64,000 bases of DNA from a virus (lineage: Duplodnaviria > Caudoviricetes): the IMG/VR virus record IMGVR_UViG_3300022876_000002. One strand, written 5' to 3'. Shown piece after piece: positions 2,878 to 61,022 of this stretch. The position numbers were made by a program, and so were the translations under genes. Numbering within the stretch: the stretch's first letter is position 1; every line of letters begins with the position of its first letter. Under the pieces are notes generated by a model. That model did not search any database. It was not told where the DNA came from and saw nothing but the letters and a program-made list of their open reading frames with translations.

Positions 2878-2906
2878 ACCTACCTTACCCAATGGGTAAG
2901 GTAGGT
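2878..2906. terminator. palindrome with 14-bp arms, centre CCCAATGGG
   Basis: acctaccttaccca-a-tgggtaaggtaggt, intergenic. Confidence 0.7.
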
Positions 2907-5100: not shown

Positions 5101-6777
5101 TTAGTTACCCAGGCTTACTGCATCGAGTTTGTTCGACACCATGATCGAACGCAGGTTAGCCAACATCTTCGCTGCACGAGCACCACCACGCAGAGCAGTG
5201 ATAGAAGCAAACGCCGTGTCGTAGATACCGAGGGTGACCGGATCGCCAATACGACCGTTAGCCAGGTTAAGCACCACGCCAGGAGCAAAGTCCTCGCGGT
5301 TAACACCTTCCATCAGGATCTCGTTCTGCTTGTGGGAGATTTCGATAACACCACCGAGGATCTCTTTCCAGGTGCTTGGGAACCCGCCGTCTTCTGGATC
5401 GGAGACTTCCTCTGTCAGGAGTTGAGGCAGTTTGTCCGCGGTAGCGATCAGAGTAGTACCTACCCCTGGAACGATACCGTTGGTCAGTGCCGAACGCACA
5501 GCTTTCACCACGTCTTCGAAGCGGTCCTTACGCTCGATGATATCCGACTCGGTTTCACCACCTACCCAGATGCTGACCAGTTTACCGGTCATCTGACGGA
5601 TACGACGCTCGTCAAAACGAGCCCGGGTATTGTAGCGGTTCTTGCCGTCGTAGGTACCCAGGACTTCCTGGACTTCTTTGACACGCTCAGCAATACGTAC
5701 CTTGGATTCGTCGCTAGGAGTCAGCAGGGAACGAGCCTGACTGATAACGAACTTGTCAGTACGTACACTGAGCTCGGCAGTCAGCGCCTGCTCTACAGTA
5801 GCCACCATAGGGCAACCCAGCATGATCGCCAAGTCTTGCAGCATGTAGCTACCGATAGAACCGCCAGCACCGTTTACACGGCAAGCCACGAACTGCAACA
5901 TCGGCTCAGTGTTGGACTGTTGTGCTTTCTGGCGCATGCCACTGTTGAACTGCAGCATGATGTTGTCCAGGGTGGACTCAAACGCGCGTGCAATCAGAAT
6001 GACTTGTACCGGTTTACCGTTCGCCCCACCGCCGTACTGTTTGGTCAGTTCAGTCAACAGGTTAGCCAGCTTCTGCATGTCTGGTTCACGGAACGCCATG
6101 TCCAGTACCAGCGGGACGTAGTGGGTGTACTCGCCCTGCTGGCGACCGCCAGGAGCATACTGGTGGTTGCTGTACACAGCGCCGGTGGTCAGACCGTCGG
6201 TACGCAGCACCTTGTCCTCGGCTTCTACACCTTGGATCAGTTCGATCACCGGGAAACTGGTTGGGTCTTCGCGGTACAGATCGGTGATCAGGTGCGCCAG
6301 CGCTGTGTCGTGGTTGGCCGAGGTCAGGGCCAGGTCGTACAGACGCGGGTCAAGCGTGTCGATGTGAATGGTGGCTTCCTGGAGTTCGTTGATCCACAGA
6401 GCCACCAGACGGTCGAGGAACGCTTGCTCGTGATAGCTGTCGAATTCACGATACAGCTTGTAGAACTCCGCCAGCATCAGCATGGTGGTAGTGGTACCGT
6501 CACCGCACTCTTCGTCAGTCTTGAGCGGAGCCTCGGTGACGATACGGTTTACCACCTCATAACGTGGGTCGTTGAATTTGATAGACCGCGCCACGGTAAC
6601 ACCGTCTTTGGTAACCTTAACGCGAGTACCCAGAGTGATCGCACCGTACTTGCCGTTAGGGCCCATGGTACCAACCACGGCTTTGTATACACGGTCAACT
6701 ACGTTGTCTACGATCTCGCCAGTCTTTTCGATGGTCAAGTAATCAACAATACCGGTGTTGCGATCAAAACCTTGCAT
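5101..6777 (-). CDS. groEL: phage GroEL-like chaperonin (phage EL gp146 type)
   Basis: 558 aa; TMGPNG, TKDGVTVARSI, GDGTTT ATP-binding motif, VGGETE..ERKDRFEDVVKAVRSAL, GIVPG, IYDTA; no GGM tail. Confidence 0.95.
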   Translation of the reverse strand: MQGFDRNTGIVDYLTIEKTGEIVDNVVDRVYKAVVGTMGPNGKYGAITLGTRVKVTKDGVTVARSIKFNDPRYEVVNRIVTEAPLKTDEECGDGTTTTMLMLAEFYKLYREFDSYHEQAFLDRLVALWINELQEATIHIDTLDPRLYDLALTSANHDTALAHLITDLYREDPTSFPVIELIQGVEAEDKVLRTDGLTTGAVYSNHQYAPGGRQQGEYTHYVPLVLDMAFREPDMQKLANLLTELTKQYGGGANGKPVQVILIARAFESTLDNIMLQFNSGMRQKAQQSNTEPMLQFVACRVNGAGGSIGSYMLQDLAIMLGCPMVATVEQALTAELSVRTDKFVISQARSLLTPSDESKVRIAERVKEVQEVLGTYDGKNRYNTRARFDERRIRQMTGKLVSIWVGGETESDIIERKDRFEDVVKAVRSALTNGIVPGVGTTLIATADKLPQLLTEEVSDPEDGGFPSTWKEILGGVIEISHKQNEILMEGVNREDFAPGVVLNLANGRIGDPVTLGIYDTAFASITALRGGARAAKMLANLRSIMVSNKLDAVSLGN

Positions 6778-8951: not shown

Positions 8952-9296
8952 TTAACCCCGCGACGCGTCGAGCAAACGAGCTTGGATGAACATCGACAAC
9001 TCACCCAGAGTTTGACCTTCGTCGTGTTTACCGTCTTGCTCGTCGATGACCTCGTCACCCTTGCAGGTGTAGGCGCGGTAGCCTTTGAGCGGGCAGATGT
9101 AGATACGGAACTTCAGGTTACCGATCCAGCCCTCGGCATAGGAGCTACCGACACAGTACTGCACACGGATGCTGCATTCCAGATCGAATGCAAAACCGTT
9201 CAGGGTACGGCCGCCGGTGTACTTTTCGCGCTTGTACCTGTTAGATTCGTCGAACACATAAGCCAGGTAATCGACGAATTTATTTGTTTTGTCCAC
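8952..9296 (-). CDS. hypothetical protein
   Basis: 114 aa. Confidence 0.75.
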   Translation of the reverse strand: MDKTNKFVDYLAYVFDESNRYKREKYTGGRTLNGFAFDLECSIRVQYCVGSSYAEGWIGNLKFRIYICPLKGYRAYTCKGDEVIDEQDGKHDEGQTLGELSMFIQARLLDASRG

Positions 9297-9306
9297 TTAG
9301 GACTCC

Positions 9307-10077
9307 TTATTTGAAAATGCGACGTTGGTATGCTTCATGAGTGACTGCCAGAGCGCGCTCATAATCTTTAGTAAGCATGTTCATTTTTGCAATATACAAC
9401 CCTGAGCCGTAATCATCCGCTCGGCATCCCTGTCGGCCAGCAGCCAGTCTGAAATGTTTGTAGTACTGTTGATCTTTGAGCCATTCCAGGTCCTTGTCGA
9501 AGTCACCTTCGTACGAGGATTTGTGCTCCAGAACAGGCGACGCGTAAGTAGGTACCCACTGCGCAGCAAATGGCTGGGTAACAGCCGACTGTTCACAGAC
9601 TGGGATCTCCGGGATGTCCCAAAGGATATTCATCGGAACACCCGCCCAGACATCATCACCCAGATGCTCCAGGAAATCACCACGGTCCATTGGGTCTTCA
9701 CGAGTCAGATCCCCTGGGTCGCTACCAAACTCCAGTGGACAACGCATCGCCCACTGAAGCAGTTCCTCACCGAAATACAGCGCCTCTTTAGGATCACTCC
9801 CGTGCTTGTGGCGCCCCCAAGCTTCAATTACTTGCAAGAAGCCAGCAAAAGTACAACGACCATAAATAGTAATCAATTCCGCAGCACGGTTGTAAGCAAA
9901 CTGCAGCCGAGCGTTACATGGTTTACCGCACACCAGATCGCTAGCAATCATCATGGTGTCGCCACTGTACGCAATTACCACCTTGGAGATCTGTTCGAAC
10001 AGGTCCTTGGCCATAAGGTTCTTGCGGATCAGTTCGATCTCGGCGCCAATGTCTTTGTCATATTTACGGGCCATCAC
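9307..10077 (-). CDS. hypothetical protein
   Basis: 256 aa. Confidence 0.8.
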   Translation of the reverse strand: MMARKYDKDIGAEIELIRKNLMAKDLFEQISKVVIAYSGDTMMIASDLVCGKPCNARLQFAYNRAAELITIYGRCTFAGFLQVIEAWGRHKHGSDPKEALYFGEELLQWAMRCPLEFGSDPGDLTREDPMDRGDFLEHLGDDVWAGVPMNILWDIPEIPVCEQSAVTQPFAAQWVPTYASPVLEHKSSYEGDFDKDLEWLKDQQYYKHFRLAAGRQGCRADDYGSGLYIAKMNMLTKDYERALAVTHEAYQRRIFK

Positions 10078-10283
10078 GGTACCCTTAAGAAATTAGTTAA
10101 CACGAAATACCCAAATGCTAATGACAATGCCACCAGCAGTGCCCCGCACAGGAATGCAAAGCAGTGCAGTTGTATGTTAGTGAACCGATCTAATACCCGA
10201 TATCCGCTATGGGTACCAAACCAGTAAACAAACCACACCACTACAAATACAAAATACAGCCCCAGCAGAATATTCTCAATCAT
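10074..10283 (-). CDS. small two-TM membrane protein
   Basis: 69 aa, hydrophobic. Confidence 0.7.
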   Translation of the reverse strand: MIENILLGLYFVFVVVWFVYWFGTHSGYRVLDRFTNIQLHCFAFLCGALLVALSLAFGYFVLTNFLRVP

Positions 10284-10292
10284 TATTACACC

Positions 10293-10553
10293 CTAGTCGG
10301 GGCGTGTTATCCACCACGTCCCATAGAAGTTAGTAAAAATGAACCCAGTGGTTTTCTTGGTATTAATACGCGCACTAAGGTCCAGCTTCAAACGGTAGCC
10401 TTTCCCTTTAGGGTAGAGTTGCTTAACAACGCCAACTTCCTTACCCTCACCCTCATTGTCAGACACCATCACTGGCACACGACCCTCTTTGAACTGGTCA
10501 AAGATAGCCATTTCCTGTTGGGTGGACAACTCCTGGTCTACAAAGATTTCCAT
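10293..10553 (-). CDS. hypothetical protein
   Basis: 86 aa, AAGGA RBS. Confidence 0.7.
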   Translation of the reverse strand: MEIFVDQELSTQQEMAIFDQFKEGRVPVMVSDNEGEGKEVGVVKQLYPKGKGYRLKLDLSARINTKKTTGFIFTNFYGTWWITRPD

Positions 10554-10562
10554 TTAGAGTCC

Positions 10563-11012
10563 TTAAACCAAAACGATTTCAAGGGTCGTAGTCATTTGCG
10601 GGTGGATACCCATGCGCAGGAGTTCTGTGGTACCTGCTGCTTTTAACTCGAGCTCCCGGTGGTGCTGCATCTTAATACCACACGGGATCCACAACGTCTT
10701 TTCTTCCGTGACGTTACCGTTATCGTAGGACCAGATAACGCCAACCGCTTCCAGGTGGTCTTTCTGTTGATAACCACCACTGATATACAACGCGTTGCAC
10801 ACATGGCGGTATTGATCCGCCAGGCGAACAAACGTACCGTGCGCTACGTCATGCACAGGCAAGTAAGACAGCTGCTGCAAGGTATCACGTAGCAAGTCAA
10901 CTGCATCCTGATAAGTGAACCCCGGTTTGTTGTAAGCGCGGAGTTCCAGACCGGCTTTCCACAGCTCACGTTCACGCCATGCTGCTGCACGTTTGGGACA
11001 AGTACGAATCAT
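10563..11012 (-). CDS. hypothetical protein
   Basis: 149 aa, GGAG RBS. Confidence 0.75.
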   Translation of the reverse strand: MIRTCPKRAAAWRERELWKAGLELRAYNKPGFTYQDAVDLLRDTLQQLSYLPVHDVAHGTFVRLADQYRHVCNALYISGGYQQKDHLEAVGVIWSYDNGNVTEEKTLWIPCGIKMQHHRELELKAAGTTELLRMGIHPQMTTTLEIVLV

Positions 11013-11021
11013 AAAGCGCTC

Positions 11022-11246
11022 CTAGATATATAAAGGCTGGTCTTTAGGCACTAACAGTCCTCTATGGAACTGTAGATAGTCACCTACCTTCAGATTACAC
11101 TGACCAGACTTGATGAAAAATAAAAGGGTCCCATGAGCTATAATAGCCCCGGAACCCTTCAAGGTTTTAACCTTAAAAGACGTAAAGCGCTCCAGCACCC
11201 GTGTTTGTTCTGGAGTTAGTTCTAAGTACCTGTGCGGTAGATCCAT
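11022..11246 (-). CDS. hypothetical protein
   Basis: probable start MDLPH at 11246 with GAGGGG RBS; overlaps the 3' end of 11173..11637. Confidence 0.55.
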   Translation of the reverse strand: MDLPHRYLELTPEQTRVLERFTSFKVKTLKGSGAIIAHGTLLFFIKSGQCNLKVGDYLQFHRGLLVPKDQPLYI

Positions 11247-11637
11247 TAACACCAACCCCCTCGAAACCACAGTCTTGGTAGACCGTCTTGTCTTGGAAGA
11301 GGGTATCGGAATCTGGCTCTATCGCACTGATCCCTATCTCCCTGTCCCCATTCTCATTTACATAGAGATAGAGGACTTTGTGGAAATTAGGTGAGTAGTA
11401 CGTTACTGCTGTACCACTCAAATCAACACGGCTGGGATCACCCAGGACATACCGTTCATTACCTACCAATACTTCGTTCTGGTAGACGTTGAACACTGTG
11501 GGTTTGTTGCTAACGTTAATGTTGTGGAACAATTCAGCGTCAGCGGTATAACCTTGCTTATTGCAGCGCAACACAGTGTCGTTAGCTACTGCGGTACCAC
11601 TCACTAAAGCCAGCGACAGAGCAATCAATTTCAGCAT
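11173..11637 (-). CDS. secreted protein (signal peptide; Cys pair bracketing a beta-rich domain)
   Basis: MLKLIALSLALVSGTAVA signal peptide; Cys near both ends of the mature domain. Confidence 0.75.
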   Translation of the reverse strand: MLKLIALSLALVSGTAVANDTVLRCNKQGYTADAELFHNINVSNKPTVFNVYQNEVLVGNERYVLGDPSRVDLSGTAVTYYSPNFHKVLYLYVNENGDREIGISAIEPDSDTLFQDKTVYQDCGFEGVGVNGSTAQVLRTNSRTNTGAGALYVF

Positions 11638-12179
11638 GCTACTACATCCTTGTAGAGTTGGCCATCGATAATGTCTTTGATGGAAATACCGTCGACCGCC
11701 TTGAGGTGGTTACGGTACAGATCGGCCAGGGTCTCCAGACGATCGGAGAATGGCAGCGATTCCAAACGGGTATTGTTCTTGCATTTCAGCGCCAGCCCAT
11801 TAAGGGTAGGACCGAACATGCTGAACACGATGTCGTTGCCATCCATGCGACCGTGGAAATACAGCGGGGACTCTTGGTCCACGAACTGCGAGAACGTTTG
11901 TTGCTTATTACCACGCAGCCACTCGCGGGCCAGTTCCAGAGCATCAATGATCTCGAGGATCTGTGCTTGGTACTCGCCCATGTGCGTGGAAATACTGAAA
12001 GTGTGCAGACTATCAGTCTTGATGAAAGTCTGGCGGCGGATGCAACCCTCAGCACCAAACTCGAGGATCGACCGCAGGATCAGGTCGCCGTTACGGGCGA
12101 TTACAGCACTGGATTCGAAAACCACATTACGGGTTTTGAACGAGTCAACCAGTTCACGCGAAGAGAAGATAATAGCCAT
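11631..12179 (-). CDS. hypothetical protein
   Basis: 182 aa. Confidence 0.75.
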   Translation of the reverse strand: MAIIFSSRELVDSFKTRNVVFESSAVIARNGDLILRSILEFGAEGCIRRQTFIKTDSLHTFSISTHMGEYQAQILEIIDALELAREWLRGNKQQTFSQFVDQESPLYFHGRMDGNDIVFSMFGPTLNGLALKCKNNTRLESLPFSDRLETLADLYRNHLKAVDGISIKDIIDGQLYKDVVAC

Positions 12180-12235
12180 GACAAATAACTCCTATTTGGG
12201 TGTCTCTATGGACAGCCCGTATAAAGGGAAAATAC

Positions 12236-12454
12236 TTACAGCACGTCGCCGATGCGAGTAAACAGGATGAAGATGTAAACCATCAACAACGCTGCTGCAA
12301 CTACAAGACCCCATTTGAGGTAGTAGTCACGGGTGCCTTTGGTGGCAGCTTTGGCCTTGGTTGCCCAAGCCAACATGAAAACTTTGCTACCGTGCATTGC
12401 TGCTGCCAGGACCAGAATGGTCAGGACTAAATGGATCAGGGTATACATGATCAA
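12236..12454 (-). CDS. small two-TM membrane protein
   Basis: 72 aa, two hydrophobic segments, AAGGAG RBS. Confidence 0.7.
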   Translation of the reverse strand: MIMYTLIHLVLTILVLAAAMHGSKVFMLAWATKAKAATKGTRDYYLKWGLVVAAALLMVYIFILFTRIGDVL

Positions 12455-12483
12455 ACTCCTTAGAGAATAAACATTGTTGTTTC

Positions 12484-12502
12484 ATACACCCTAGTGATAT
12501 AG
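12484..12502 (-). promoter_or_regulatory. early promoter-like motif CTATATCACT-AGGGTGTAT
   Basis: upstream of the 12454 start; one mismatch to consensus. Confidence 0.65.
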
Positions 12503-12521
12503 ACCTGACCATCTCTAGGAA

Positions 12522-13022
12522 TTAAACCAGACGAAGCCTGGTGTAGATACCGGTTTCGTCTACTGGTTCAAAACCACGGGCCTTGTAAAACTTAAGGGCC
12601 GGCTGGTTATCGCGGTAACACTGGAGTTCCAGTGGTCGGTTGAAAACCTCACGATGATTGTTTATCATGTAAGTTCCCTTACCGCTACCCCGATGTGGAG
12701 AGTTAACCCACAACGACAGTAACTGTTCATCAGTTACAGCCATGAAACCATGTGGTTGGTAGTTGTATTCCAGAACGTAGAAGAAGTCTACCAGTTTGAG
12801 GTATTCTTGGAATTTCTCATCGAGGAACCCTGGTATCTTACTTTTGGCAATCTGTTCTTGGAACAAGACAGCAATAGTCTTATCCTGGGTAACCATGGCT
12901 AGCTCTTCTTTGGCTAGTTCATCCCACATGTACCGAATATGCGGTAGGGTCTTGCTATCGACCGCATCACGGTGGTACATGCGTAGCTGCCAGTGCGAGT
13001 TCAAATAACGAGTGTTTCTCAT
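12522..13022 (-). CDS. GNAT-family N-acetyltransferase
   Basis: LWVNSPHRGSGKGTYM (motif A), NQPALKFYKARGF (motif B). Confidence 0.9.
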   Translation of the reverse strand: MRNTRYLNSHWQLRMYHRDAVDSKTLPHIRYMWDELAKEELAMVTQDKTIAVLFQEQIAKSKIPGFLDEKFQEYLKLVDFFYVLEYNYQPHGFMAVTDEQLLSLWVNSPHRGSGKGTYMINNHREVFNRPLELQCYRDNQPALKFYKARGFEPVDETGIYTRLRLV

Positions 13023-13630
13023 TGTAGCTCCCTGCGCGCAACGATGATAAGTGCTTCCAGTTCTTCCAGGGTGTAGTGTCCATCCACTACTGCGTAGTCG
13101 CCACGGAAGTCGATATACGACCGGTCGATGTTATCCAGGACTTTATCGTAATGTGTCGGATCTGTTGGGGTAAGTGCTTCAATATGACAACCTTGTTCTG
13201 GACTGAACTCAGCCGTCACACCGAAACCACATTTAACGAAGACTTTAGTACTGGCAACAGTTTCCTTGGTCCAGACCGCTTTGAAGAAAGGGAACTTACC
13301 CTCGTTAAAGGTTTTGTAGTTTTGCAGCAACTGTGTCCCGACACCCTGGTTCTGGAAAGGAGGGTACACGTACATGTCTATTACTTGGTTACCACCAGCA
13401 ATTAGGTAACCGCTCACCCCATTGCCACCAGCGTGAACAATACCCACGTAGTCAGTGTGGTCCAACCACGTTTTGAACTGTCGTTTGGCTTCGTCGAGGT
13501 CTTCAATGCCTTTAACTGTGTCGTACAGATAAGCAAGCTTGTCGAGGTGCTTATCGTACAACTCCCGCGGGAATTTGAAAAGTGAGTCAACCGACAACTT
13601 ACCAACAAAAAACTCGTACGTATATTCCAT
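13019..13630 (-). CDS. GNAT-family N-acetyltransferase with C-terminal extension
   Basis: DMYVYPPFQNQGVGTQLL, KVFVKCGF. Confidence 0.85.
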   Translation of the reverse strand: MEYTYEFFVGKLSVDSLFKFPRELYDKHLDKLAYLYDTVKGIEDLDEAKRQFKTWLDHTDYVGIVHAGGNGVSGYLIAGGNQVIDMYVYPPFQNQGVGTQLLQNYKTFNEGKFPFFKAVWTKETVASTKVFVKCGFGVTAEFSPEQGCHIEALTPTDPTHYDKVLDNIDRSYIDFRGDYAVVDGHYTLEELEALIIVARRELQ

Positions 13631-13651
13631 AAAAAATCCTTAGGTGGGTAA

Positions 13652-13681
13652 TAGGTAAGCTAGCCTAGGCTAGCTTACCTA
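13652..13681. repeat. perfect 30-bp palindrome centred on CTAG (terminator-like)
   Basis: taggtaagctagcct|aggctagcttaccta. Confidence 0.85.
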
Positions 13682-13687
13682 ACAGGG

Positions 13688-14230
13688 TTAAGACAGTTTC
13701 CAGACGCAGCACGTTGCATTAGACATACAGAACCCCAACCTGGTGAGGAAAGCTCGCGGATCCAGATCGTAGGAATGTAAGCTACAAGTGATCTCCCTTA
13801 CGTCAAAGCGGTTGATGTACAGCTCCAACAAGCTGAGGCCGATGCGATCCCGACGGAAAGCAGGAATCACGTACATGTCCAGGATGTAGTGGTGAGGAGT
13901 CATGAGTAGGTAACCCATGACCATGCCGTGCTGGTTCTCCATGAGGATAACCGTTGATGCATCCGCAACACGGGCTTCGAAAACTTCCCGTCGCTTGGCT
14001 GGATTCAGCATCCAATCCAGGCCGTTCCAAGCATCTGGGTTATTAATGAACCACGGAAGCTGCTCGTAAACACCCAGGTTGAACAACTCCCACATTGACG
14101 CTAGTAGTGGACCTTCTGGCTTGTCATCGCCAATGTGCACCAGCCGTGCTTGGAACCCATCGGCGTATTTAACCTTACGTCTAGGGATCCCAAACACATT
14201 ACGATCAAATAATGCTTTATTAACAGTCAT
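13688..14230 (-). CDS. GNAT-family N-acetyltransferase
   Basis: LDMYVIPAFRRDRIGLSLL, RAFLTRLGF. Confidence 0.85.
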   Translation of the reverse strand: MTVNKALFDRNVFGIPRRKVKYADGFQARLVHIGDDKPEGPLLASMWELFNLGVYEQLPWFINNPDAWNGLDWMLNPAKRREVFEARVADASTVILMENQHGMVMGYLLMTPHHYILDMYVIPAFRRDRIGLSLLELYINRFDVREITCSLHSYDLDPRAFLTRLGFCMSNATCCVWKLS

Positions 14231-14865
14231 TAATAATCGTCCTTCAAGTCTTCGTGTTTACAGTTGCCTTCACCAGGCCCGCCGTTTTTCATGAACCACA
14301 CCAATTGAGCAAGCTCGGCCATGTCGAATGTGCCGTCTAGGGTAACATCTTTACCATCTGGTCCCCAGTGGATATACTGCCCCATCTTACCGATGTCTTT
14401 TCTGTTTGCAGTCAGGGCGATTGCACCTCGGTATTCCGGACCATTTAAGCACCACCATCCATCGCGTCGACCACGGCGTACGAACTCGAACTTACGAGCT
14501 TTCAAGAACGCACCAAATGGAGGATCTTCTTGTTCGATTTCGATGATAACGTATTCAATACTCCTACACATTAAGTCGTGGAGTAATGCACTACCAATGC
14601 CTTGCCTGCGGTATTTAGACTCCACATACAACACATTGATTACAAAAGCACCGTCATGCCACGCGCCGCACAAGGCACCGATAATCTTGTTATCATCGGC
14701 CTTGTCCTTAGCAAACATCCAACCCTGGTCGTAGGTAGGTGGGACGATACCTGTTTCTTGTTGCAATTGCTCCAACAAGTGTTTAACCCAGTGGCGTTTA
14801 ACGTTTTCATCCGGGTAGTTAACAGATTCTACCAAGATGTTATCTGGCAGTCGCTTGAGTTCCAT
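14230..14865 (-). CDS. GNAT-family N-acetyltransferase with C-terminal extension
   Basis: VLYVESKYRRQGIGSALL, AFLKARKF; start MELKRL after a GAGGA RBS. Confidence 0.85.
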   Translation of the reverse strand: MELKRLPDNILVESVNYPDENVKRHWVKHLLEQLQQETGIVPPTYDQGWMFAKDKADDNKIIGALCGAWHDGAFVINVLYVESKYRRQGIGSALLHDLMCRSIEYVIIEIEQEDPPFGAFLKARKFEFVRRGRRDGWWCLNGPEYRGAIALTANRKDIGKMGQYIHWGPDGKDVTLDGTFDMAELAQLVWFMKNGGPGEGNCKHEDLKDDY

Positions 14866-14867
14866 GA

Positions 14868-15314
14868 TCAGATCCTCTTGCAATTAGCCACGTAAACAGC
14901 ACGGTTGATTTCGCCATCAGACTTTGGATCTGGATCAGCGAAATACAGAATGAAATACGGTTTACCATTACCATCAACACGCTTGAACATCATCTCGTGT
15001 TGGGTACCTGCTACACCACTGATGTTCCCACCTTCAGGGATTGCTAACACCAGTCCTTCTTTGAGCAGGTCGTTCTTGGCGAACTTGAATTCGTATTTGG
15101 TTTGTTCAATACGGGTTTCCATGGTAACCCGGGGGTTATCCGTGGTATAACCTTGGGTAAAGGTCATCGCGTTGTCAGTATACTCCTGACACACGAACGT
15201 CTTTTGAACCGCGGCGTTTACAGTAGGGTCCAAAGACAAAGCCGAGGGCTGTTGTGCGGCCGCTGCCATACCAACAACAGGAATCAGGGACAGAACGAAC
15301 ATTGCAATCTTCAT
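14868..15314 (-). CDS. secreted protein (signal peptide; terminal Cys pair)
   Basis: MKIAMFVLSLIPVVGMAAAA signal; TFVC ... VANCKRI. Confidence 0.75.
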   Translation of the reverse strand: MKIAMFVLSLIPVVGMAAAAQQPSALSLDPTVNAAVQKTFVCQEYTDNAMTFTQGYTTDNPRVTMETRIEQTKYEFKFAKNDLLKEGLVLAIPEGGNISGVAGTQHEMMFKRVDGNGKPYFILYFADPDPKSDGEINRAVYVANCKRI

Positions 15315-15361
15315 GAAACACTCCTAAATGGATCGAGTGCAAGTATAACCGGAATTGGTTA

Positions 15362-15811
15362 TTACTTGTTGTAGCGGTTTACCAGCATTTGCAGTTTACG
15401 CAGACGCTCTTTACCTGCCTTGCGGGCTTTCCAGACCGCAGTATTATTAGTGCGGCAGTACCAATCAATCCACTTGGGATTGAGACCAAAGGTGGTTTCG
15501 CCACGGATTTCGGGTTCGGGGTCGTGGCCAAGACGGGCTTTGAGGATATCATCAAAAGGCGAACTGTGGATCTCCTCGTTTGTCATTGAACCAATACGGT
15601 CTACACTTGCTTGCAGTTCTTCTTCAGAGTAACATTTAGGTTCTCTGATTTTCTTGCTTACCAGCTCTCGTAATTCTGGGTTACTATATTGCTTTAGAAC
15701 TTCTTCTACTTCAGGTGTTAAAGGTCCGCCTCGTTCAAAGTCTTCAGCACCATATGGAACTGTTCTTGGACTAACCGGTTTGTCACTATGCTTGGCCATG
15801 TGATCTTTCAT
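15362..15811 (-). CDS. hypothetical protein with C-terminal WxxW module
   Basis: GLNPKWIDWYCRTNNTAVWKARKAG. Confidence 0.75.
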   Translation of the reverse strand: MKDHMAKHSDKPVSPRTVPYGAEDFERGGPLTPEVEEVLKQYSNPELRELVSKKIREPKCYSEEELQASVDRIGSMTNEEIHSSPFDDILKARLGHDPEPEIRGETTFGLNPKWIDWYCRTNNTAVWKARKAGKERLRKLQMLVNRYNK

Positions 15812-15821
15812 TACGATTACC

Positions 15822-16127
15822 TCAGTTAATATGACGCAACGCATTACGAGAATTGAAGAAGTAGTCAGCCATTCGGTTTACCCCGAGTACAGCTAATCCT
15901 TCATCAATACGAATGCCGTTGAATGGGTTACCAGGATCTTTGTTATTCAGCAAATGGTAGCCGCGGTTAATGGCAATAACACGCGGTACTCCAGTCTGAC
16001 GCTGGTGCCACTCTACCCAATCATTGGAGAGTATCTGTCGATCATGTTTGGTGAGAGGAGGTTCCATATCAGCAGACTGTTTGAGACGCGCCATGGTCCG
16101 CACCATGTTGATGCCCAACGTACTCAT
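15822..16127 (-). CDS. hypothetical protein with WxxW module
   Basis: ILSNDWVEWHQRQTGVPRVIAINRG. Confidence 0.7.
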   Translation of the reverse strand: MSTLGINMVRTMARLKQSADMEPPLTKHDRQILSNDWVEWHQRQTGVPRVIAINRGYHLLNNKDPGNPFNGIRIDEGLAVLGVNRMADYFFNSRNALRHIN

Positions 16128-16444
16128 TTATCGTTACCCAGGTACTTGATATCAACCGCACCGATGCGTGCACGGGAAATATCCGGATCGCGTGACATGA
16201 GTGCCGGAGAGATCGCATACGACTGCCCATCTACCGTAACCCAGTTGTTCTCGATATACACACCACAGAGAGCCCAGAAGCTTTTGACCATCTTGCGTAC
16301 GCCGCCGGTCAGGTTGTCGATAGCCAGGATAACTTTAGCACGCTCGGCTTCAGACGCCTGTGCCCAGAAAGCCATGGTGTAACGCTCCAAGGCTTCTTTA
16401 CCTTCGACGTCAGCCAGCCCGCAAATGTATTCTTCAAACGTCAT
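16124..16444 (-). CDS. hypothetical protein
   Basis: start MTFEE just after the 16447 stop. Confidence 0.7.
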   Translation of the reverse strand: MTFEEYICGLADVEGKEALERYTMAFWAQASEAERAKVILAIDNLTGGVRKMVKSFWALCGVYIENNWVTVDGQSYAISPALMSRDPDISRARIGAVDIKYLGNDK

Positions 16445-16446
16445 TA

Positions 16447-16755
16447 TTACCACCACATTGTTCTATGTTCTTTAGGGATTTCGGCACCTTCTGCTTTTGC
16501 CTTTATGCGCGCTTTACACGTACTTAAAGCAATATTGGAAGACACCTTTTTACGCAAGCGATACCACTTCTGCCAAACTGGGCTAGGTTTACCAGACTCA
16601 GTGGTCAGTTCCGGTTCAGGCAAGTTCTGTACACGTTCATTGAAATCTTTGTGCGCGTCCAGGTAAGTAGAACCCTTGGTCTCCATACACCACTTAGTCC
16701 AAGGGCCTTGGTTGAGTTCACCACGTTTGGTGATAAGTGGGGGTTCTTTGGCCAT
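16447..16755 (-). CDS. hypothetical protein with WxxW module
   Basis: LNQGPWTKWCMETKGSTYLDAHKDF. Confidence 0.7.
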   Translation of the reverse strand: MAKEPPLITKRGELNQGPWTKWCMETKGSTYLDAHKDFNERVQNLPEPELTTESGKPSPVWQKWYRLRKKVSSNIALSTCKARIKAKAEGAEIPKEHRTMWW

Positions 16756-17517
16756 TTATTTGCCCCAGGTAGTAAACGGGTTGGACAGGTCCAATGGGAT
16801 AGCTTTGTCGCTATCGGGGCGTTCTTTGTCACGCTGGATCTCGAAGTAGCCGCTCGGAACATCACCCTTGCTGAAAACTACTACAGGGTCGTCTTCTGGG
16901 ACTCGACCGTTATCGTCAATGGGACGACCGTCAGCGGTATGAGTAATACCTTCCAACAGTTTCTGCCTGCGGCGACCTTCTACTGTTACTGCCAGACGCT
17001 TGAACGTTGGCTGGTTAAAGATAACCACGTCATGCTTCGGTCCATCCATGACTTTAACGTCCATGCCTTTGAAGTGTCCAAAGTTAGGCATTGGAGCAAT
17101 GTCACGCAAGCTACGACCAACGAAGCACGGCGGTGTATGGTTAGTCGGAATATGCCAGGTCCCAGGGAAAACAAACGCGTTGAACAAAGGGCCAGAGATA
17201 TAATTCTCCATAACCCCGACAAATGCTTTCTTTGATGTAGCCAGCTCGTCAAAGACGAGTCTGTAAACTGTGTTACGTACACCACCGTCGCGCAGCACCA
17301 GGCTGGTCAAGTGGTCGTGGAACGGATCGAAAGGAGGAACAACGAACCCGTCCTTGTGCAATGCGCGGTGATGGGTGATCTCTGGCATTGCTTCGCGCAA
17401 CTGACCCAAGAAGCTGAAAGGGCTGTCCACAGGATACCCTTCGTTGTCGATAGTTACGGTGTGTATTACCGGAGCCGCTACCTGAGCTTTAATGAAATCT
17501 TCGAATTCTTTGCTCAT
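16756..17517 (-). CDS. hypothetical protein, first gene after early promoter
   Basis: 253 aa. Confidence 0.8.
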   Translation of the reverse strand: MSKEFEDFIKAQVAAPVIHTVTIDNEGYPVDSPFSFLGQLREAMPEITHHRALHKDGFVVPPFDPFHDHLTSLVLRDGGVRNTVYRLVFDELATSKKAFVGVMENYISGPLFNAFVFPGTWHIPTNHTPPCFVGRSLRDIAPMPNFGHFKGMDVKVMDGPKHDVVIFNQPTFKRLAVTVEGRRRQKLLEGITHTADGRPIDDNGRVPEDDPVVVFSKGDVPSGYFEIQRDKERPDSDKAIPLDLSNPFTTWGK

Positions 17518-17566
17518 TACCTAGTACCTCGTACAGTTGATCAGTATTAAAAACATTGTTACATGC

Positions 17567-17585
17567 ATACACTCGAGTAATGTAG
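17567..17585 (-). promoter_or_regulatory. early promoter-like motif CTACATTACT-CGAGTGTAT
   Basis: upstream of the 17517 start. Confidence 0.7.
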
Positions 17586-17654
17586 GTTTGTTTTATTACA
17601 AGAGTTAAAAACGTGCAGGGCTTACTAAATAGGGTAACTGGTTAAATAAAATTC

Positions 17655-17658
17655 TATG
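17655..17658 (+). promoter_or_regulatory. possible late promoter TATG after an AT-rich stretch
   Basis: phiKZ nvRNAP late promoters use TATG at the start site; a 4-mer is weak evidence. Confidence 0.25.
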
Positions 17659-17678
17659 ACTTCTCGAAGGTAACTATT

Positions 17679-18392
17679 ATGCACGAGTTATTACTGGCTA
17701 GCCGCTCAGGGTTCATTCCTCCTACTGGTGATGTCATTTTCCTCTTTGACCCCGGTACTGGTAAGGACGAAATATCCAACCAAGTCTGCATCGCAATGAG
17801 CGGTGGGCTTGCAGTGGACTCTACTTATCTAATGGACGACAAACCCTCATTGAAATTTACCGGGGCTGCCAACCAAGGATTAATTACCTTACCACAGGCA
17901 ATCAACCTCGATACCCTAGGTGACTGGACGATAGAGTGGAGCTCTCGCCCTACATCGTTCGTAACCACATATGCTAATGAACTATTCCTAGACATAACCA
18001 CCACCCAAGGTTATCCAATTGGTTGTAGGTGGGGTGATGGTGGTTATGGTAACCGCTTGCAGTTTAATATCAGTAATTGGGCTAACACTAACATAGGCCA
18101 GCCGCCAATCAATAAAGCTAGTGTTGTTAACAAAGTTAACCGGTGGGCTATGGTTTTCAGGAACAACCTGCTGCGTATATACAAAGATGGTGTACTACAA
18201 ATGATCGCCTTTGGTACATCCACCACATATGCACAAGATTACATGCCCAAGGTTAGTACATTACTGACAGCTACAAAAATGTATCTTGGTTACTACAACA
18301 ACATCAACCAAGCGTGGTTGGGTAACTTTGGGCGGATACGTATTAGCAATTTTGCTCGCTACTTGGGTAACTATACCCCAGAGAGTTTCTAA
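17679..18392 (+). CDS. LamG/concanavalin-A-like domain protein (possible virion accessory)
   Basis: DWTIEW..., LRIYKDG, WLGNFGRIRISNFARY...YTP resemble the LamG C-terminal signature. Confidence 0.7.
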   Translation: MHELLLASRSGFIPPTGDVIFLFDPGTGKDEISNQVCIAMSGGLAVDSTYLMDDKPSLKFTGAANQGLITLPQAINLDTLGDWTIEWSSRPTSFVTTYANELFLDITTTQGYPIGCRWGDGGYGNRLQFNISNWANTNIGQPPINKASVVNKVNRWAMVFRNNLLRIYKDGVLQMIAFGTSTTYAQDYMPKVSTLLTATKMYLGYYNNINQAWLGNFGRIRISNFARYLGNYTPESF

Positions 18393-18404
18393 GGGAAATG
18401 AATT

Positions 18405-19322
18405 ATGATTGAAGCAATGTTGTTCCGTAAACCAGCTAGCGGACCTAACATAATCCAGGGTATTTATTCGTCCCTAGCGCCAGGCGGCACTGCTCGTAGT
18501 GGGCAGTGTCTGGTAATGGTAGGAGACCTAATTTACAGTTATGGTGGAACGTACGGCGCCCTGAACAACACAATGGAAGTGTATGACATTAGAACCAATA
18601 CCTGGACTACTGTCACTCCTAACAATACCGCACCTACCCCCAGACACTCCCCAGGATTTTGTTTACTAAATAACAAACTCTACATGTTCGGCGGGTCTAC
18701 CGGTGTTAACTGGGGTCCAATGTCCAATGAAGCCTGGTGTTATGATTTCGCTACTAAACTGTGGACGAAATTAGCAAACTACCCTGTGTCGTTGGCTTTA
18801 GTAAGTGCGGTAGCCATCAATGATAAGATTTACTTACTCGGCGGGTATACCGGCACTGCTGCGTCCAGCCCATTCCATGAATACGATCCGGTCGCCAATT
18901 CATACAGGGCCATCACGCACTCGTTAAGTGCCCGTTACGGGCATAAAGCGGTTGTTGTTGATGGGTTAATGTATGTGTTTGGTGGTTCTATCGGGCCAAG
19001 CGCTGTTAGAGAATCATGGTCGTATAACCCAGTTAGTAACGTCTGGACCTCGTTGAAGGTAATGCCAGAAGGCAAACCACACTCTTACGTGGCTGCAATC
19101 GGCCCACTCATCTACATTTATGGAGGTAAGCAGGGTAACGAATCTGCTGCTATCAATAAGTTCTACCGCTACAACACAGGGACAGGGAACTGGACAGAAA
19201 TGCCACCAGGCCCAAGCCTCTACTACATGGGTGCTGCAGTAGCTAATGAAAACGCCATTTACATGCATGGCGGTATTGACATTAATGTAGCGTCTACAGC
19301 GCAACTACTAAAAATTACATAA
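18405..19322 (+). CDS. Kelch-repeat beta-propeller protein
   Basis: six blades with Y-x-x-GG (YSYGG, YMFGG, YLLGG, YVFGG, YIYGG, YMHGG) and downstream Y(D/N)...W. Confidence 0.9.
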   Translation: MIEAMLFRKPASGPNIIQGIYSSLAPGGTARSGQCLVMVGDLIYSYGGTYGALNNTMEVYDIRTNTWTTVTPNNTAPTPRHSPGFCLLNNKLYMFGGSTGVNWGPMSNEAWCYDFATKLWTKLANYPVSLALVSAVAINDKIYLLGGYTGTAASSPFHEYDPVANSYRAITHSLSARYGHKAVVVDGLMYVFGGSIGPSAVRESWSYNPVSNVWTSLKVMPEGKPHSYVAAIGPLIYIYGGKQGNESAAINKFYRYNTGTGNWTEMPPGPSLYYMGAAVANENAIYMHGGIDINVASTAQLLKIT

Positions 19323-19328
19323 GTGTTT

Positions 19329-19365
19329 ATAGTACCTCCTAGCCCATTGGGCTAGGAGGTACTAT
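19329..19365. terminator. bidirectional terminator, 18-bp arms, centre CCCATTGGG
   Basis: atagtacctcctagccca-t-tgggctaggaggtactat between convergent genes. Confidence 0.8.
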
Positions 19366-21106: not shown

Positions 21107-21134
21107 CTACCTGGTAGGCTAGCCTACCAGGTAG
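21107..21134. repeat. perfect 28-bp palindrome centred on CTAG (terminator-like)
   Basis: ctacctggtaggct|agcctaccaggtag. Confidence 0.85.
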
Positions 21135-40621: not shown

Positions 40622-40647
40622 GGCTCTTACCCCTAGGGGTAAGAGCC
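40622..40647. repeat. perfect 26-bp palindrome centred on CTAG (terminator-like)
   Basis: ggctcttacccct|aggggtaagagcc. Confidence 0.85.
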
Positions 40648-49494: not shown

Positions 49495-49523
49495 ACCTAG
49501 TAGACCCATTGGGTCTACTAGGT
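49495..49523. terminator. palindrome with 14-bp arms, centre CCCATTGGG
   Basis: acctagtagaccca-t-tgggtctactaggt. Confidence 0.75.
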
Positions 49524-54424: not shown

Positions 54425-57325
54425 TTAAATGCGGTCGCGTTGAGTGAAGAACTTGTTGGTACCGTTTGCGCCATCGTCGGCGAAGAACGGAATCGCACCA
54501 CCCTGACGAGTAGCACTGATCACATGGTTGTTCAACACGATGTAGCTAGTGTTGGATTCCCAAATGCCGTTCTTGATCATCCCGATCATCACTTCGTTGT
54601 TGGACGATTCCCGCAGAGTCAGCGATGCGTTCACAAGGAACTTCATGCCGGTACGGATAAGGTACAAGTAGTAAGTGAGCGTAGGGTCAACTTGGATCTC
54701 GTAGCTACGGTCAGTTGCGAACGACCGTCCGTTGATCACCATCTTGGTACCCGCCGGGATAACCACAAACCCTACGTCGTTTGGATCGAACGGATCGATC
54801 TGGTCAGCAGGGTTAGCAACGTTGGTGCACAGCGTGTTGAAATCCGTGGCGTTTACCGGATCATACTGCCAGATGCCTTTACCAGGGATATTGAACGCAG
54901 GGTACAACTCATCCACTACGTCAATAGCCGAACTACCAGGGTACAGACGTGCTGGGTTAACAGCAACCATGGCAATCTCAGGCACAGCAGCGTTGAGACC
55001 GGTAATGGTGAAACTGATGTCACCATACAGTTTACCAAACGGACGGTTGATCACCACTGCATAGTTGTTGGTGGCTGTACGATGAATCAACATGTCGGAG
55101 AACTCAGATGTCAAGTTATCCCCAGACTTCGACTCACGGGACAGCCCCGGTACCGCAGTAGCGTCACCCAACAGTGCCGTAACCAGTTTCATGCCACTGC
55201 TGAAGTTCAGCGTAACAATCCCGTTGACGTTGGTGTAGTTGACAATGCCGCCCTCAACCGAACCCAGGCCATCCGAGAGGATGTACAGAGCCTTGTTGTT
55301 AGCTGGCAGCACATACACAGCAAACGAAGGCTTACGCAGGCTGTTGTTGATAGTCGGGCGACGTGTACGAGTACGCTCCAAGAACGCAGGGAGTAACCCT
55401 TTGATCTTGATCTGACTGGCCTTGCTAAGCTGTACTGGGTCACCCAAGATAAGCACGCCGTCGGCGTAGGTGAAACTGCTCACGGATTTGTAGCCATTCG
55501 CCTCAGTGAACACCAGCGGAGTATTCGACACGGAGTTGAGTGTCGTGGTGGTGTAACTCACAATACCGCTTGGGAAAAACTTGAGGTTATTGTTAGTCGT
55601 CACTTCTTCTGGTTGTTTAAGACCAGTCTTAGTGTCGATAACGTTACCCATCAGGTTGTTGGTAGCCCAAGAGATTTCTTTCCATCCGTACTGTGCAGTT
55701 TGCATGTTCAGACCGTATACCAAGTACATAGTCTTTGCTGCTACTTGCGAGATAGGGATAATCCGATCGGGCAACGACGTAAACGGACTGTGACGACCCG
55801 GTACATAGGTGGTCAGTGTCGCTTGGTTCATCGGTACCCGCGGGCGTGGACCTACCATCCACTCCAAGTGGTTAGCAAACGACGACTCGTATTTCTTCAC
55901 CTTGAGGCTGTACTTGGTAGTTTTGGACTTAATTACCGTCCCGTCATCCAAGATCATCCCTGGCGAGTGCACAGTAGAGTTGACATCCCACTGGTCACTT
56001 ACCGTAAAGAACGCAGCACCTACTGGATCAGACTTGTCAGCAGGGATTACATCCGGTGGGGCCTCAGAAACAATACTGATCGCTGCTTTACCACCAGCAC
56101 GTAAAGTACCAGGGATAATCGAAACGATAAAGTTCAAGGTGAGGTATTTGAGTGTTGCGTCTGAATACCGTACGTAGCAACCGATAGCCATGAACAGGTA
56201 AGCTTCACCGTCCTGGATGTTCCACACCAACGAGATGTTGTCAGTGGAGCGGTTACCACCACCGGTTAATGTAGCGCCTGCTGGCAAGGAGATAAACTGA
56301 CCGATGTCTATTGTGAAAGGGTCGTTGGCTGGTTGGTTAACCGCTGCACCTACAAATGGCTTAACCGATGCCATGTAAGTGTTATCCAACAAGTCCACCA
56401 GTGTCGGGTCAGTGTCCGGGGTGTTAACCTTGAAAAACCGCGGTTGTATCGTAACGACGTTACCGGTTCGGCTAGTGGAGACTCCCAGTCCTTTATAAGT
56501 AGCGCCAGCATACCCACGGAACAGCAGGTAAGCAATGGTAGCGTCACCAGCCAGTCCGGTAGTCTGGTTCTTGAAGTCGAAGATCTTTTTCTCCGGCAAC
56601 GGACGGAAGAAGTTTACTGTGCGTGCAGTAGTAGGACCTGCACTACTCCGCCACCCTCTAGGACGATACGTGCTGGAGATATTGCGGATCTCGGTCATGG
56701 GTACTTTGTCAAACGCCCGAGTAGGTCCGCTGAGGAAGCACGTGTTGCGCTGGTAGTTGGCAGTAGCGCGTGTAGTGGTGAACAGCAACCGATCCGAGTC
56801 CAAGAGGATACTTGGGTAAATATCGTTGGTTTCGGCCTTGGTGAAATACCGGGGAATCTCTACTGTACCGGGCAATGTAGTAGGGTAGTTGTTTTGGTAG
56901 TAGTAGGACGACATCTGCAACACGTCGTTCTGCTGGTAAGCCGTTTTGTCGTAAGTACCGGTGTTCTCGGTTACTGCTTGCTTGGCACCCTGCACCGTTA
57001 CAAAAGCATCTACGTCAGCGAAGGCTAACTGTTGTGCCAAGGTGGCTGCAGGGAAGTTATCCTTATTGCCAAGCCCTACGGTGGCTTTGTTTTCGCCATG
57101 CACAGGACCACGTGCGTTGATGTGCTCATCCATTGGCACTACTACTTCCTGAATGAACGAGTTCAGCGCGTCGGTAAAGCCTTGTAACTTAGCACTGGTG
57201 TCGCCGGAGAAGTTCTTGGTTTTCTCCTCCACGAAAAACGTGAGTTCGTTCATTTTCTCGATGACCCCACCGAACCGGGGGTTGGGGTCTTCGCTGAACG
57301 GTTGTGCTTCGTCAAATGTAAGCAT
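54425..57325 (-). CDS. putative tail fibre / baseplate-associated virion protein (paralog family)
   Basis: VHGENKATVGLGNKDNF anchor-like motif; C-terminal domain shared with the next two genes; start MLTFD after a GGAG RBS. Confidence 0.75.
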   Translation of the reverse strand: MLTFDEAQPFSEDPNPRFGGVIEKMNELTFFVEEKTKNFSGDTSAKLQGFTDALNSFIQEVVVPMDEHINARGPVHGENKATVGLGNKDNFPAATLAQQLAFADVDAFVTVQGAKQAVTENTGTYDKTAYQQNDVLQMSSYYYQNNYPTTLPGTVEIPRYFTKAETNDIYPSILLDSDRLLFTTTRATANYQRNTCFLSGPTRAFDKVPMTEIRNISSTYRPRGWRSSAGPTTARTVNFFRPLPEKKIFDFKNQTTGLAGDATIAYLLFRGYAGATYKGLGVSTSRTGNVVTIQPRFFKVNTPDTDPTLVDLLDNTYMASVKPFVGAAVNQPANDPFTIDIGQFISLPAGATLTGGGNRSTDNISLVWNIQDGEAYLFMAIGCYVRYSDATLKYLTLNFIVSIIPGTLRAGGKAAISIVSEAPPDVIPADKSDPVGAAFFTVSDQWDVNSTVHSPGMILDDGTVIKSKTTKYSLKVKKYESSFANHLEWMVGPRPRVPMNQATLTTYVPGRHSPFTSLPDRIIPISQVAAKTMYLVYGLNMQTAQYGWKEISWATNNLMGNVIDTKTGLKQPEEVTTNNNLKFFPSGIVSYTTTTLNSVSNTPLVFTEANGYKSVSSFTYADGVLILGDPVQLSKASQIKIKGLLPAFLERTRTRRPTINNSLRKPSFAVYVLPANNKALYILSDGLGSVEGGIVNYTNVNGIVTLNFSSGMKLVTALLGDATAVPGLSRESKSGDNLTSEFSDMLIHRTATNNYAVVINRPFGKLYGDISFTITGLNAAVPEIAMVAVNPARLYPGSSAIDVVDELYPAFNIPGKGIWQYDPVNATDFNTLCTNVANPADQIDPFDPNDVGFVVIPAGTKMVINGRSFATDRSYEIQVDPTLTYYLYLIRTGMKFLVNASLTLRESSNNEVMIGMIKNGIWESNTSYIVLNNHVISATRQGGAIPFFADDGANGTNKFFTQRDRI

Positions 57326-57374
57326 TCCCAGCTCCTGCAAATAAACTAGGTGCTGTACAAGCCACCTAGCTGGG

Positions 57375-60977: not shown

Positions 60978-60997
60978 TGTAACACCTTGAAGGTTAA

Positions 60998-61016
60998 TAG
61001 GGGGCTAGGCCCCCTA
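60998..61016. terminator. hairpin tagggggc-tag-gcccccta
   Basis: between the tail-fibre paralogs. Confidence 0.6.
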
Positions 61017-61022
61017 CGGTGG

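Follow-up and report, generated by a model that had tools for sequence, protein, structure and literature searches.

Four adjacent, divergent GNAT acetyltransferase genes in a variable island of a soil jumbo phage related to Pseudomonas phage EL

We examined a run of four adjacent genes, here called G1 to G4, in a 64,000-nt stretch of viral DNA, IMGVR_UViG_3300022876_000002 (the window, within which all positions below are counted). Judged by sequence, G1-G4 are four genuine, divergent and selectively maintained Gcn5-related N-acetyltransferases (GNATs). They lie in an island where a slot between a 148-aa gene and a hairpin gains, loses and exchanges extra GNAT genes among related phages. From its encoded proteins the window is part of a jumbo phage of ∼240 kb, a distant relative of Pseudomonas phage EL (about 34% amino acid identity). 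The four genes are as follows.

12522 to 13022, minus strand: G1, a 166-aa GNAT with motif A RGSGKG and a motif B that includes Tyr146; Pfam Acetyltransf_1 score 30.7 bits.
13019 to 13630, minus strand: G2, 203 aa, GNAT domain at about residues 1-160 with motif A QNQGVG, followed by a C-terminal tail; Pfam score 23.7 bits.
13688 to 14230, minus strand: G3, a 180-aa GNAT with motif A RRDRIG and a conserved N-terminal extension of ∼75 aa; Pfam score 22.1 bits.
14230 to 14865, minus strand: G4, 211 aa, GNAT domain at about residues 5-145 with motif A RRQGIG, followed by an extended tail; Pfam score 29.0 bits.

An earlier reading of the letters alone (the sequence-only reading) had described four neighbouring GNATs with these motifs A and a motif B each, and the open reading frames (ORFs), coordinates, motif strings and Pfam scores all agree with that description. 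The four proteins exceed the gathering score of Pfam Acetyltransf_1 (PF00583, 20.7 bits) with E values from 4e-7 to 1.9e-4, the match of G4 being confined to residues 51-99, and by this sequence measure the passing of the threshold by all four adjacent genes is far beyond chance. Each of them also matched PHROG acetyltransferase families. The start of G4 at 14865 (MELKRL) coincides with the residue at which its homologs begin. Motif A is canonical in G1, G2 and G4 (pattern Q/R-x-x-G-x-G/A after strand beta-4); in G3 an arginine replaces the central glycine, and this arginine is invariant within the G3 family. A motif-B-like helix of the form ..F...(G/K)F is present in each protein, and in the alignments each family keeps its other motif-A residues and its strand-helix geometry.

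The sequence-only reading had named structure prediction as a check on its assignment, and the GNAT fold was indeed found wherever models were used. The AlphaFold2 model of G3 (mean predicted local distance difference test score, pLDDT, 68; predicted template modelling score 0.65) retrieved nothing but GNATs among its top 50 Foldseek matches in the PDB, with a best E value of 5e-5. ESM Atlas models of G2 (residues 1-160) and G4 (residues 1-145) gave template modelling (TM) scores, normalised by target, of 0.79-0.83 and 0.73-0.75 respectively to GNATs. An AlphaFold2 model of G4 built from a 4-sequence alignment was too poor (pLDDT 45) and was left unused. Searches of the PDB with the G2, G3 and G4 family profiles returned essentially GNATs only. 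Fold evidence thus covers G2, G3 and G4, and the assignment of G1 comes from its sequence matches to YjaB (2kcw) and to PRK10562 and PRK10514.

The four proteins are only distantly related to one another. Pairwise BLASTP among them gave short matches near motif A only, in keeping with the dissimilar N-terminal regions that had been remarked on earlier, and their kinship emerged in profile-profile comparisons (E values 2e-9 for G2-G3, 2e-6 for G2-G1, 1e-5 for G4-G2 and ∼6e-5 for both G4-G1 and G4-G3). Since they are related at the profile level only, G1-G4 are not recent duplicates; recent tandem duplication was considered and ruled out because pairwise similarity is too low. By sequence they either are paralogs of long standing or were recruited separately as GNATs. 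Purifying selection acts on all four: pairwise ratios of nonsynonymous to synonymous substitution rates (dN/dS) are 0.04-0.19; G1, described as the most constrained, has a ratio of 0.06 and G3 of 0.12-0.19.

The genes are tightly packed. The upstream 148-aa gene ends 2 nt before the G4 start, the G4 stop and G3 start overlap by 1 nt (TAATG), and the G2 stop and G1 start overlap by 4 nt (ATGA). On sequence grounds we read this layout as two translationally coupled pairs, G4-G3 and G2-G1, with a hairpin between them.

13652 to 13681: perfect 30-nt palindrome in the 57-nt G3-G2 gap, the sole gap of the array, ∼30 nt upstream of the G2 start.

As RNA the palindrome has a folding energy of -23.1 kcal/mol (z score -3.4). 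The stem-loop is kept ∼30 nt upstream of G2 (of G1 in the array locus L002) in seven arrays, whichever gene precedes it, and compensatory stem changes were seen in the loci L007 and L011. The hairpin likely acts in transcript termination or processing and marks where the variable slot ends on its 3' side. It is one of several perfect intergenic palindromes of 13-18 bp with tiny loops in the window (2878-2906, 13652-13681, 19329-19365, 21107-21134, 40622-40647 and 49495-49523), the tops of which read CCCA-N-TGGG or CCT-AGG. This family probably represents bidirectional terminators or processing hairpins delimiting transcription units.

To describe the island we compared the window with array loci in about ten related contigs of 233-244 kb (loci numbered between L002 and L022), in which genes were classified with family hidden Markov models (HMMs). 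The borders of the island and the order of GNAT genes within it are listed here.

14868 to 15314, minus strand: upstream flank and 5' border of the variable slot; its 148-aa product begins with a signal-peptide-like stretch.
12236 to 12454, minus strand: downstream flank, a 72-aa hydrophobic protein (70-85 aa among relatives), found after G1 in all arrays.
11631 to 12179, minus strand: conserved 182-aa protein, next after the hydrophobic downstream flank and present in related contigs.
Window and L004: array G4-G3-G2-G1.
L002: array G4-G3-G1.
L009: array G3-G2-G1.
L005, L007 and L022: array G2-G1.
L011: G4-G2, followed by a 393-aa fusion protein in which a tail-like linker joins a G1-like domain to a second GNAT.
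L015 and L016: a 383-aa double GNAT whose last domain and tail are of G4 type, next a 231-aa GNAT, and finally G2 and G1.

From these contents the slot holds 2-5 GNAT domains. The G1 family is represented in every related array, and G2 homologs in the related contigs are 35-99% identical. The upstream flank protein (143-148 aa among relatives, 53-100% identical) lies directly upstream of the array in every related locus and matched no Pfam or PHROG family; the downstream 72-aa protein likewise had no Pfam or PHROG match above cut-off, and a weak match to DUF4235 below it. Gains and losses have gene-precise DNA boundaries, L002 being without exactly G2 and L005 without exactly G4-G3. Exchange is visible in the comparison of the window with L004, where the flanks and G2-G1 are mostly 91-100% identical and precisely the G4-G3 stretch drops to 68-85%. 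Synonymous divergence (dS) follows the same boundaries, at 0.68-1.07 over G4-G3 and 0.05-0.17 in the flanks and G2-G1. Raised dS together with a low dN/dS indicates that the G4-G3 block was exchanged by recombination. Fast protein evolution was considered as the source of the G4-G3 divergence and ruled out, since dS rises with dN at a ratio of 0.12-0.19.

Further variation was noted at and around the island. Double-GNAT fusions occur at this locus in L011 (L011:3315-4496, 393 aa), in L015 (L015:5001-6152, 383 aa) and in P0071 (408 aa), and consist either of a G1-like domain, tail-like linker and second GNAT or of an extra GNAT ahead of a G4-type domain and tail. L005, which is without G4-G3, has an extra 175-aa GNAT at L005:4371-4898, two genes upstream of the 148-aa flank and outside all four families. 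A second mosaic zone, composed of small genes of unknown function, lies just upstream of the island (15529-15809, 16453-16753 and 16785-16888). Relative to the window, strain variants on contigs of two soil runs have 279 nt and 299 nt of this zone replaced by 672 and 640 nt, and 102 nt deleted without replacement; these breaks recur in the comparison with L004. Near the array, signal-peptide-like N-termini were seen on two conserved proteins that belong to no Pfam or PHROG family (14868-15314 and 11173-11637, both minus strand).

G2 and G4 extend 45-65 residues beyond their GNAT domains, and the two extensions share a module of ∼40 aa.

13022 to 13159, minus strand: G2 tail, residues 158-203, a beta-hairpin and helix, predicted homodimerisation module.
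14233 to 14412, minus strand: G4 tail, residues 152-211, the same hairpin-helix module with an extra conserved ending.

The common module consists of a hairpin (Y-I-x-F/W ... V-x-V/L-D-G) followed by a helix (F/Y-T-x-x-E-L-x-x-L); the consensus of the G2 tail is Y-I-D-F-R-G-x-x-V-x-V-D-G-x-F/Y-T-L-x-E-L-E-x-L, and the G4-type ending carries a conserved G-G-P-G-x-G-x-C-x-H-x-D-L. The hhalign alignment of the G4 and G2 families (E 1e-5 to 3e-5) starts in the GNAT core and continues across the tail, by which the two tails are judged homologous. The tail is the best-conserved part of both families, with 19 invariant columns of 33 in G2 (residues 172-202) and 24 of 43 in G4 (residues 152-207).

Within the window the tail HMM matched G2 and G4 only. 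A profile search of 1.84 billion representative proteins recovered ∼20 clusters with the GNAT-plus-tail architecture, as well as tails encoded by short stand-alone ORFs (48-106 aa, on short contigs) and tails placed between or after the domains of double GNATs. All the members with long-contig context that we looked up are at this locus of this phage clade, and the contigs of the two stand-alone ORFs that we looked up measure 1.0 and 1.6 kb, which is too little for a placement. By these sequence searches the tail is clade-specific. No credible relative of it was found in Pfam (E ≤ 10), in the PDB by sequence or by profile, or among Atlas features, and comparison with Atlas structures gave matches with TM scores of at most 0.49 and unrelated names.

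An alignment of 26 tail sequences shows a strand that is hydrophobic and acidic. The G2 tail modelled from it as a homodimer gave an ipSAE interface score of 0.83, against 0.01 for the best of three controls, with contacts in 100% agreement between runs and a partner pLDDT of 92-93. In the model, the strand at G2 residues 178-188 pairs antiparallel with its twin, and helix 191-203 adds to the interface. Of proteins solved as one-chain pairs, 20 of 30 reached the mark on this score, as did 1 of 23 with single-chain structures; these counts hold only roughly here because our own alignment was used for the dimer model. The tail is thus probably, on modelling evidence, a dimerisation module.

The nearest counterpart in a cultured phage is gp152 of EL (YP_418185.1, annotated 'GNAT family N-acetyltransferase'), also of 166 aa. 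It is the ortholog of G1, with 27% identity over 93% of the protein (tblastn E 8e-15), and the G1 HMM scores it at 112.6 bits. EL represents the closest cultured lineage, and a phage GroEL is common to it and the window phage. On the strength of this sequence relationship G1 can be described as the ancestral core enzyme, common with EL. EL differs in having gp152 beside a Kelch-like gene, with one unrelated GNAT 10 kb away, so that it has two dispersed GNATs in total; it is without G2, G3, G4, the tail domain and the array. Phage SPN3US carries four genes that match PF00583, of which three lie in ∼10 kb of an accessory region; unlike those of the window, they are non-adjacent. The GNATs of SPN3US-like phages (gp88, solved as PDB 7DQG, gp95 and gp104) are kin at the superfamily level only (G3 profile against 7dqg, E 0.048) and are without the tail. 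The earlier remark on the rarity of four consecutive GNATs in a phage stands in one respect, strict adjacency of four being uncommon, and is overstated in another, given SPN3US. Numerous GNATs have been described across jumbo phages (Iyer et al. 2021, PMC7824862), and multiple nearby GNATs in one jumbo phage are already known.

As to function, we lean, with moderate confidence, towards the view that G1-G4 use acetyl-CoA to acetylate a number of distinct proteins of the host or the phage. During infection each enzyme would take an acetyl or other short acyl group from coenzyme A (CoA) and pass it to an amine acceptor of its own, most likely a lysine or the N-terminus of a host (or phage) protein. 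Such acetylation would reprogramme or disarm the host, as with phage Rac and AcrVA5, the variable members of the island would suit the phage to one host or another or to the defences it meets there, and the tail would, as the model predicts, make dimers of the G2 and G4 enzymes. Post-translational modification is an established route of phage takeover and anti-defence, by ADP-ribosylation in T4 and by acetylation in the case of Rac and of AcrVA5, a small phage-encoded GNAT that acetylates Cas12a. YjaB and YiaC are protein lysine acetyltransferases. The nearest named relatives of G1 are E. coli YjaB (2kcw, E 0.002), PRK10562 and PRK10514, ∼150-aa single-domain GNATs that G2 also matches, and we counted this kinship toward protein substrates. 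RimI-like protein N-acetyltransferases were 2 of the 10 nearest Atlas structure clusters listed for G4 and 1 of 10 for G2, the rest being mostly generic GNATs. Acetylation of host targets is plausible by analogy with Rac of phiKMV-like phages, a small phage GNAT that acetylates the alpha subunit of host RNA polymerase (PMC7552054), and the GNATs of jumbo phages have been predicted to be Rac-like modifiers of host proteins (PMC7824862, PMC13282480, PMC7552054). Rac serves here as a functional model only: a tblastn search of 50,697 phage records with G1-G4 (E ≤ 1e-3) returned no phiKMV-like phage, and hence no detectable relationship to Rac. In the same search G1 matched EL-like and a few Streptococcus phages only, and G2-G4 matched none. 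Cassette-like turnover of the accessory members would fit host- or defence-specific roles. The earlier idea of a diversified toolkit aimed at several targets is supported insofar as divergent, maintained GNATs, gain and loss, and the G4-G3 allele swap all fit it; no target was identified.

Several observations weigh against protein acetylation. Selection is purifying with no sign of diversification, which is not the classic signature of an arms race. G1 scored 33.9 bits against PRK10562 (cut-off 125) and 31.5 bits against PRK10514 (cut-off 134), so that at the NCBIfam equivalog cut-offs it is not a member of these YjaB/YiaC-type families. Scores of G1-G4 against RimI (TIGR01575) were 13.8-17.3 bits, where the cut-off is 86.4. 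The motif-B tyrosine is retained in G1 only, motif A of G3 has lost its central glycine, and the tail dimer is a model. Among solved structures, the G2 family profile finds its best match in the 1,3-diaminopropane/polyamine acetyltransferase DpA (8a9n/8a9o, E 1e-5, profile positions 27-146, nearly the whole GNAT domain), and the best fold matches of G3 are acetyltransferases of amino-acid analogues (PA4866, YncA and phosphinothricin-type enzymes, TM ∼0.5). By these G2 and G3 matches, small-molecule substrates fit about as well. We regard as possible, if unlikely, that the enzymes acetylate small molecules and not proteins: polyamines (spermidine, diaminopropane), amino-acid analogues that are toxic, or antibiotics of the soil and metabolites directed against phages, aminoglycosides among them. 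They would thereby tune the metabolite pool of the infected cell or render harmless those compounds that stop the phage from replicating. Such compounds occur in soil, the source of the phage, functional phage spermidine N-acetyltransferases are documented (PMC9992855), and G4 shows weak matches to spermidine acetyltransferases and to AAC(3)-XI and AAC(6'). However, no NCBIfam SpeG, polyamine or AAC model was matched at E ≤ 0.1, the nearest approach to SpeG-like enzymes being G4 residues 56-104 against 2fl4/9dsb at E 0.02 only. The match of the G4 profile to AAC(3)-XI (9mgt, E 0.0014 over 67 positions; E 0.075 for G3) lies among equally weak generic GNAT matches. Similarity to DpA is low and G2 has the additional tail; overall the resemblance is at the generic GNAT level (TM ∼0.5, 13-20% identity), and metabolism alone poorly explains four enzymes, two with a predicted dimerisation tail, that undergo cassette-like turnover.

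It is very unlikely, in our judgement, that some members (G3, or G2 and G4) are non-catalytic GNAT-fold scaffolds or binders kept for binding. The arginine in motif A of G3 and the missing tyrosines invite this explanation, as does the conservation of the tail above that of the catalytic domain in G2 and G4. Yet many active GNATs are without the motif-B tyrosine, the rest of motif A and its geometry are conserved in each family, and motif A contacts the pyrophosphate through backbone amides, so that a glycine-to-arginine change need not abolish binding. One or more of the proteins could be toxins of the TacT, AtaT or ItaT type, which would acetylate charged tRNA and shut off host translation. 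Toxin action on aminoacyl-tRNA had been raised in the sequence-only reading and would suit the GNAT fold, the small size of the proteins and the fact that host shut-off is a common early phage function. We consider such toxins highly improbable: no ribbon-helix-helix (RHH) or DUF1778-like partner was seen among the ten flanking proteins, NCBIfam and PDB searches gave no toxin match, and such an activity would harm a phage that depends on host ribosomes. More generally, the links once suggested to defence proteins, aminoglycosides and aminoacyl-tRNA were not seen. There is no antitoxin-like neighbour, the ten proteins flanking the array had no Pfam or PHROG family above cut-off, PADLOC gave no hit below E 0.04 for the locus, and the AAC and SpeG matches are weak and partial. 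Modification of nucleic acids or nucleotides, whether Mom-like acylation of DNA bases or acetylation of nucleotide immune signals, seems exceedingly improbable. Mom-family GNATs do occur in some jumbo phages (PMC7824862; PMC13219725), but those Mom domains are fused to nucleases, unlike G1-G4; no Mom-like Pfam or NCBIfam hit and no nucleic-acid-binding domain was detected, and the tail strand is hydrophobic and acidic. Finally, beyond the acetylation of several proteins that we favour, the island could be a modular hot-spot for counter-defence or host takeover, in which the tail assembles G2/G4-type GNATs into homo- or heterodimers, or docks them on a common partner, while catalytic heads with different protein targets, defence proteins for example, are swapped. 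This proposal is a speculative one that we think is rather doubtful; if it is true, phage acetyltransferases would show a new principle of architecture, with the tail as a shared assembly module for swapped heads.

What is new here is the occurrence of four strictly adjacent, mutually divergent GNATs as two coupled pairs, the fixed insertion slot with gain, loss and allele exchange in a small uncultured clade, and an undescribed tail domain predicted to dimerise. On the sequence evidence the locus is so far an annotated curiosity and not a new system. We know of almost no jumbo-phage GNAT with a known target. The island offers a natural experiment, in that near-identical phages differ in the GNAT genes filling one slot, with a core enzyme common with cultured EL and a small tail module, predicted to dimerise, on two enzyme lineages. 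With the host, or with EL gp152 as a proxy, the set could reveal how many host processes a giant phage acetylates, and also whether such enzymes move as cassettes.

Beyond its relationship to EL, the window phage is known solely from soil, rhizosphere and compost metagenomes. Megablast and blastn searches of the region against the 50,697 phage records gave no nucleotide match, and scans of IMG/VR with G4 and G1 as queries returned no relatives. In protein searches, relatives of G1-G4 were found solely on the 233-244-kb metagenome contigs (among them one from compost and several from JGI and ENA assemblies). The stretch is present in 24 soil runs, 20 of which are filed as metatranscriptomes. 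In the libraries filed as RNA, contigs over the stretch are 13-47 kb long, the longest records in the runs reach 65-192 kb and depth is flat, so that DNA carry-over is possible and these runs are no proof of transcription. Across positions 9000-19000, the phage and a ∼98% identical variant occur at k-mer depths of 44-323 in soil runs of 2018-2019. The depths and long contigs suggest an abundant phage and carry-over of its DNA into the libraries. A scan for sigma-70 promoters and terminators gave counts no higher than in shuffled sequences. Jumbo phages of this kind probably rely on RNA polymerases of their own, which makes the scan uninformative.

Elsewhere the window encodes a phage GroEL, an NAD-dependent ligase, an SbcC-like protein and large virion proteins that are ∼34% identical to those of EL and ∼32% identical to those of the Erwinia phages Joad and RisingSun.

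5101 to 6777, minus strand: GroEL-type chaperonin (phrog_5725, E 2e-101), counterpart of EL gp146.
54425 to 63944, minus strand: three consecutive virion or tail-like proteins of 970-1200 aa, ∼34% identical to EL structural proteins.

The order of the GroEL gene relative to the GNAT and Kelch-like genes differs between the window and EL. Of the three virion or tail-like proteins, a pair of paralogs belongs to phrog_3573 and the third to phrog_14667; an N-terminal module is common to all three.

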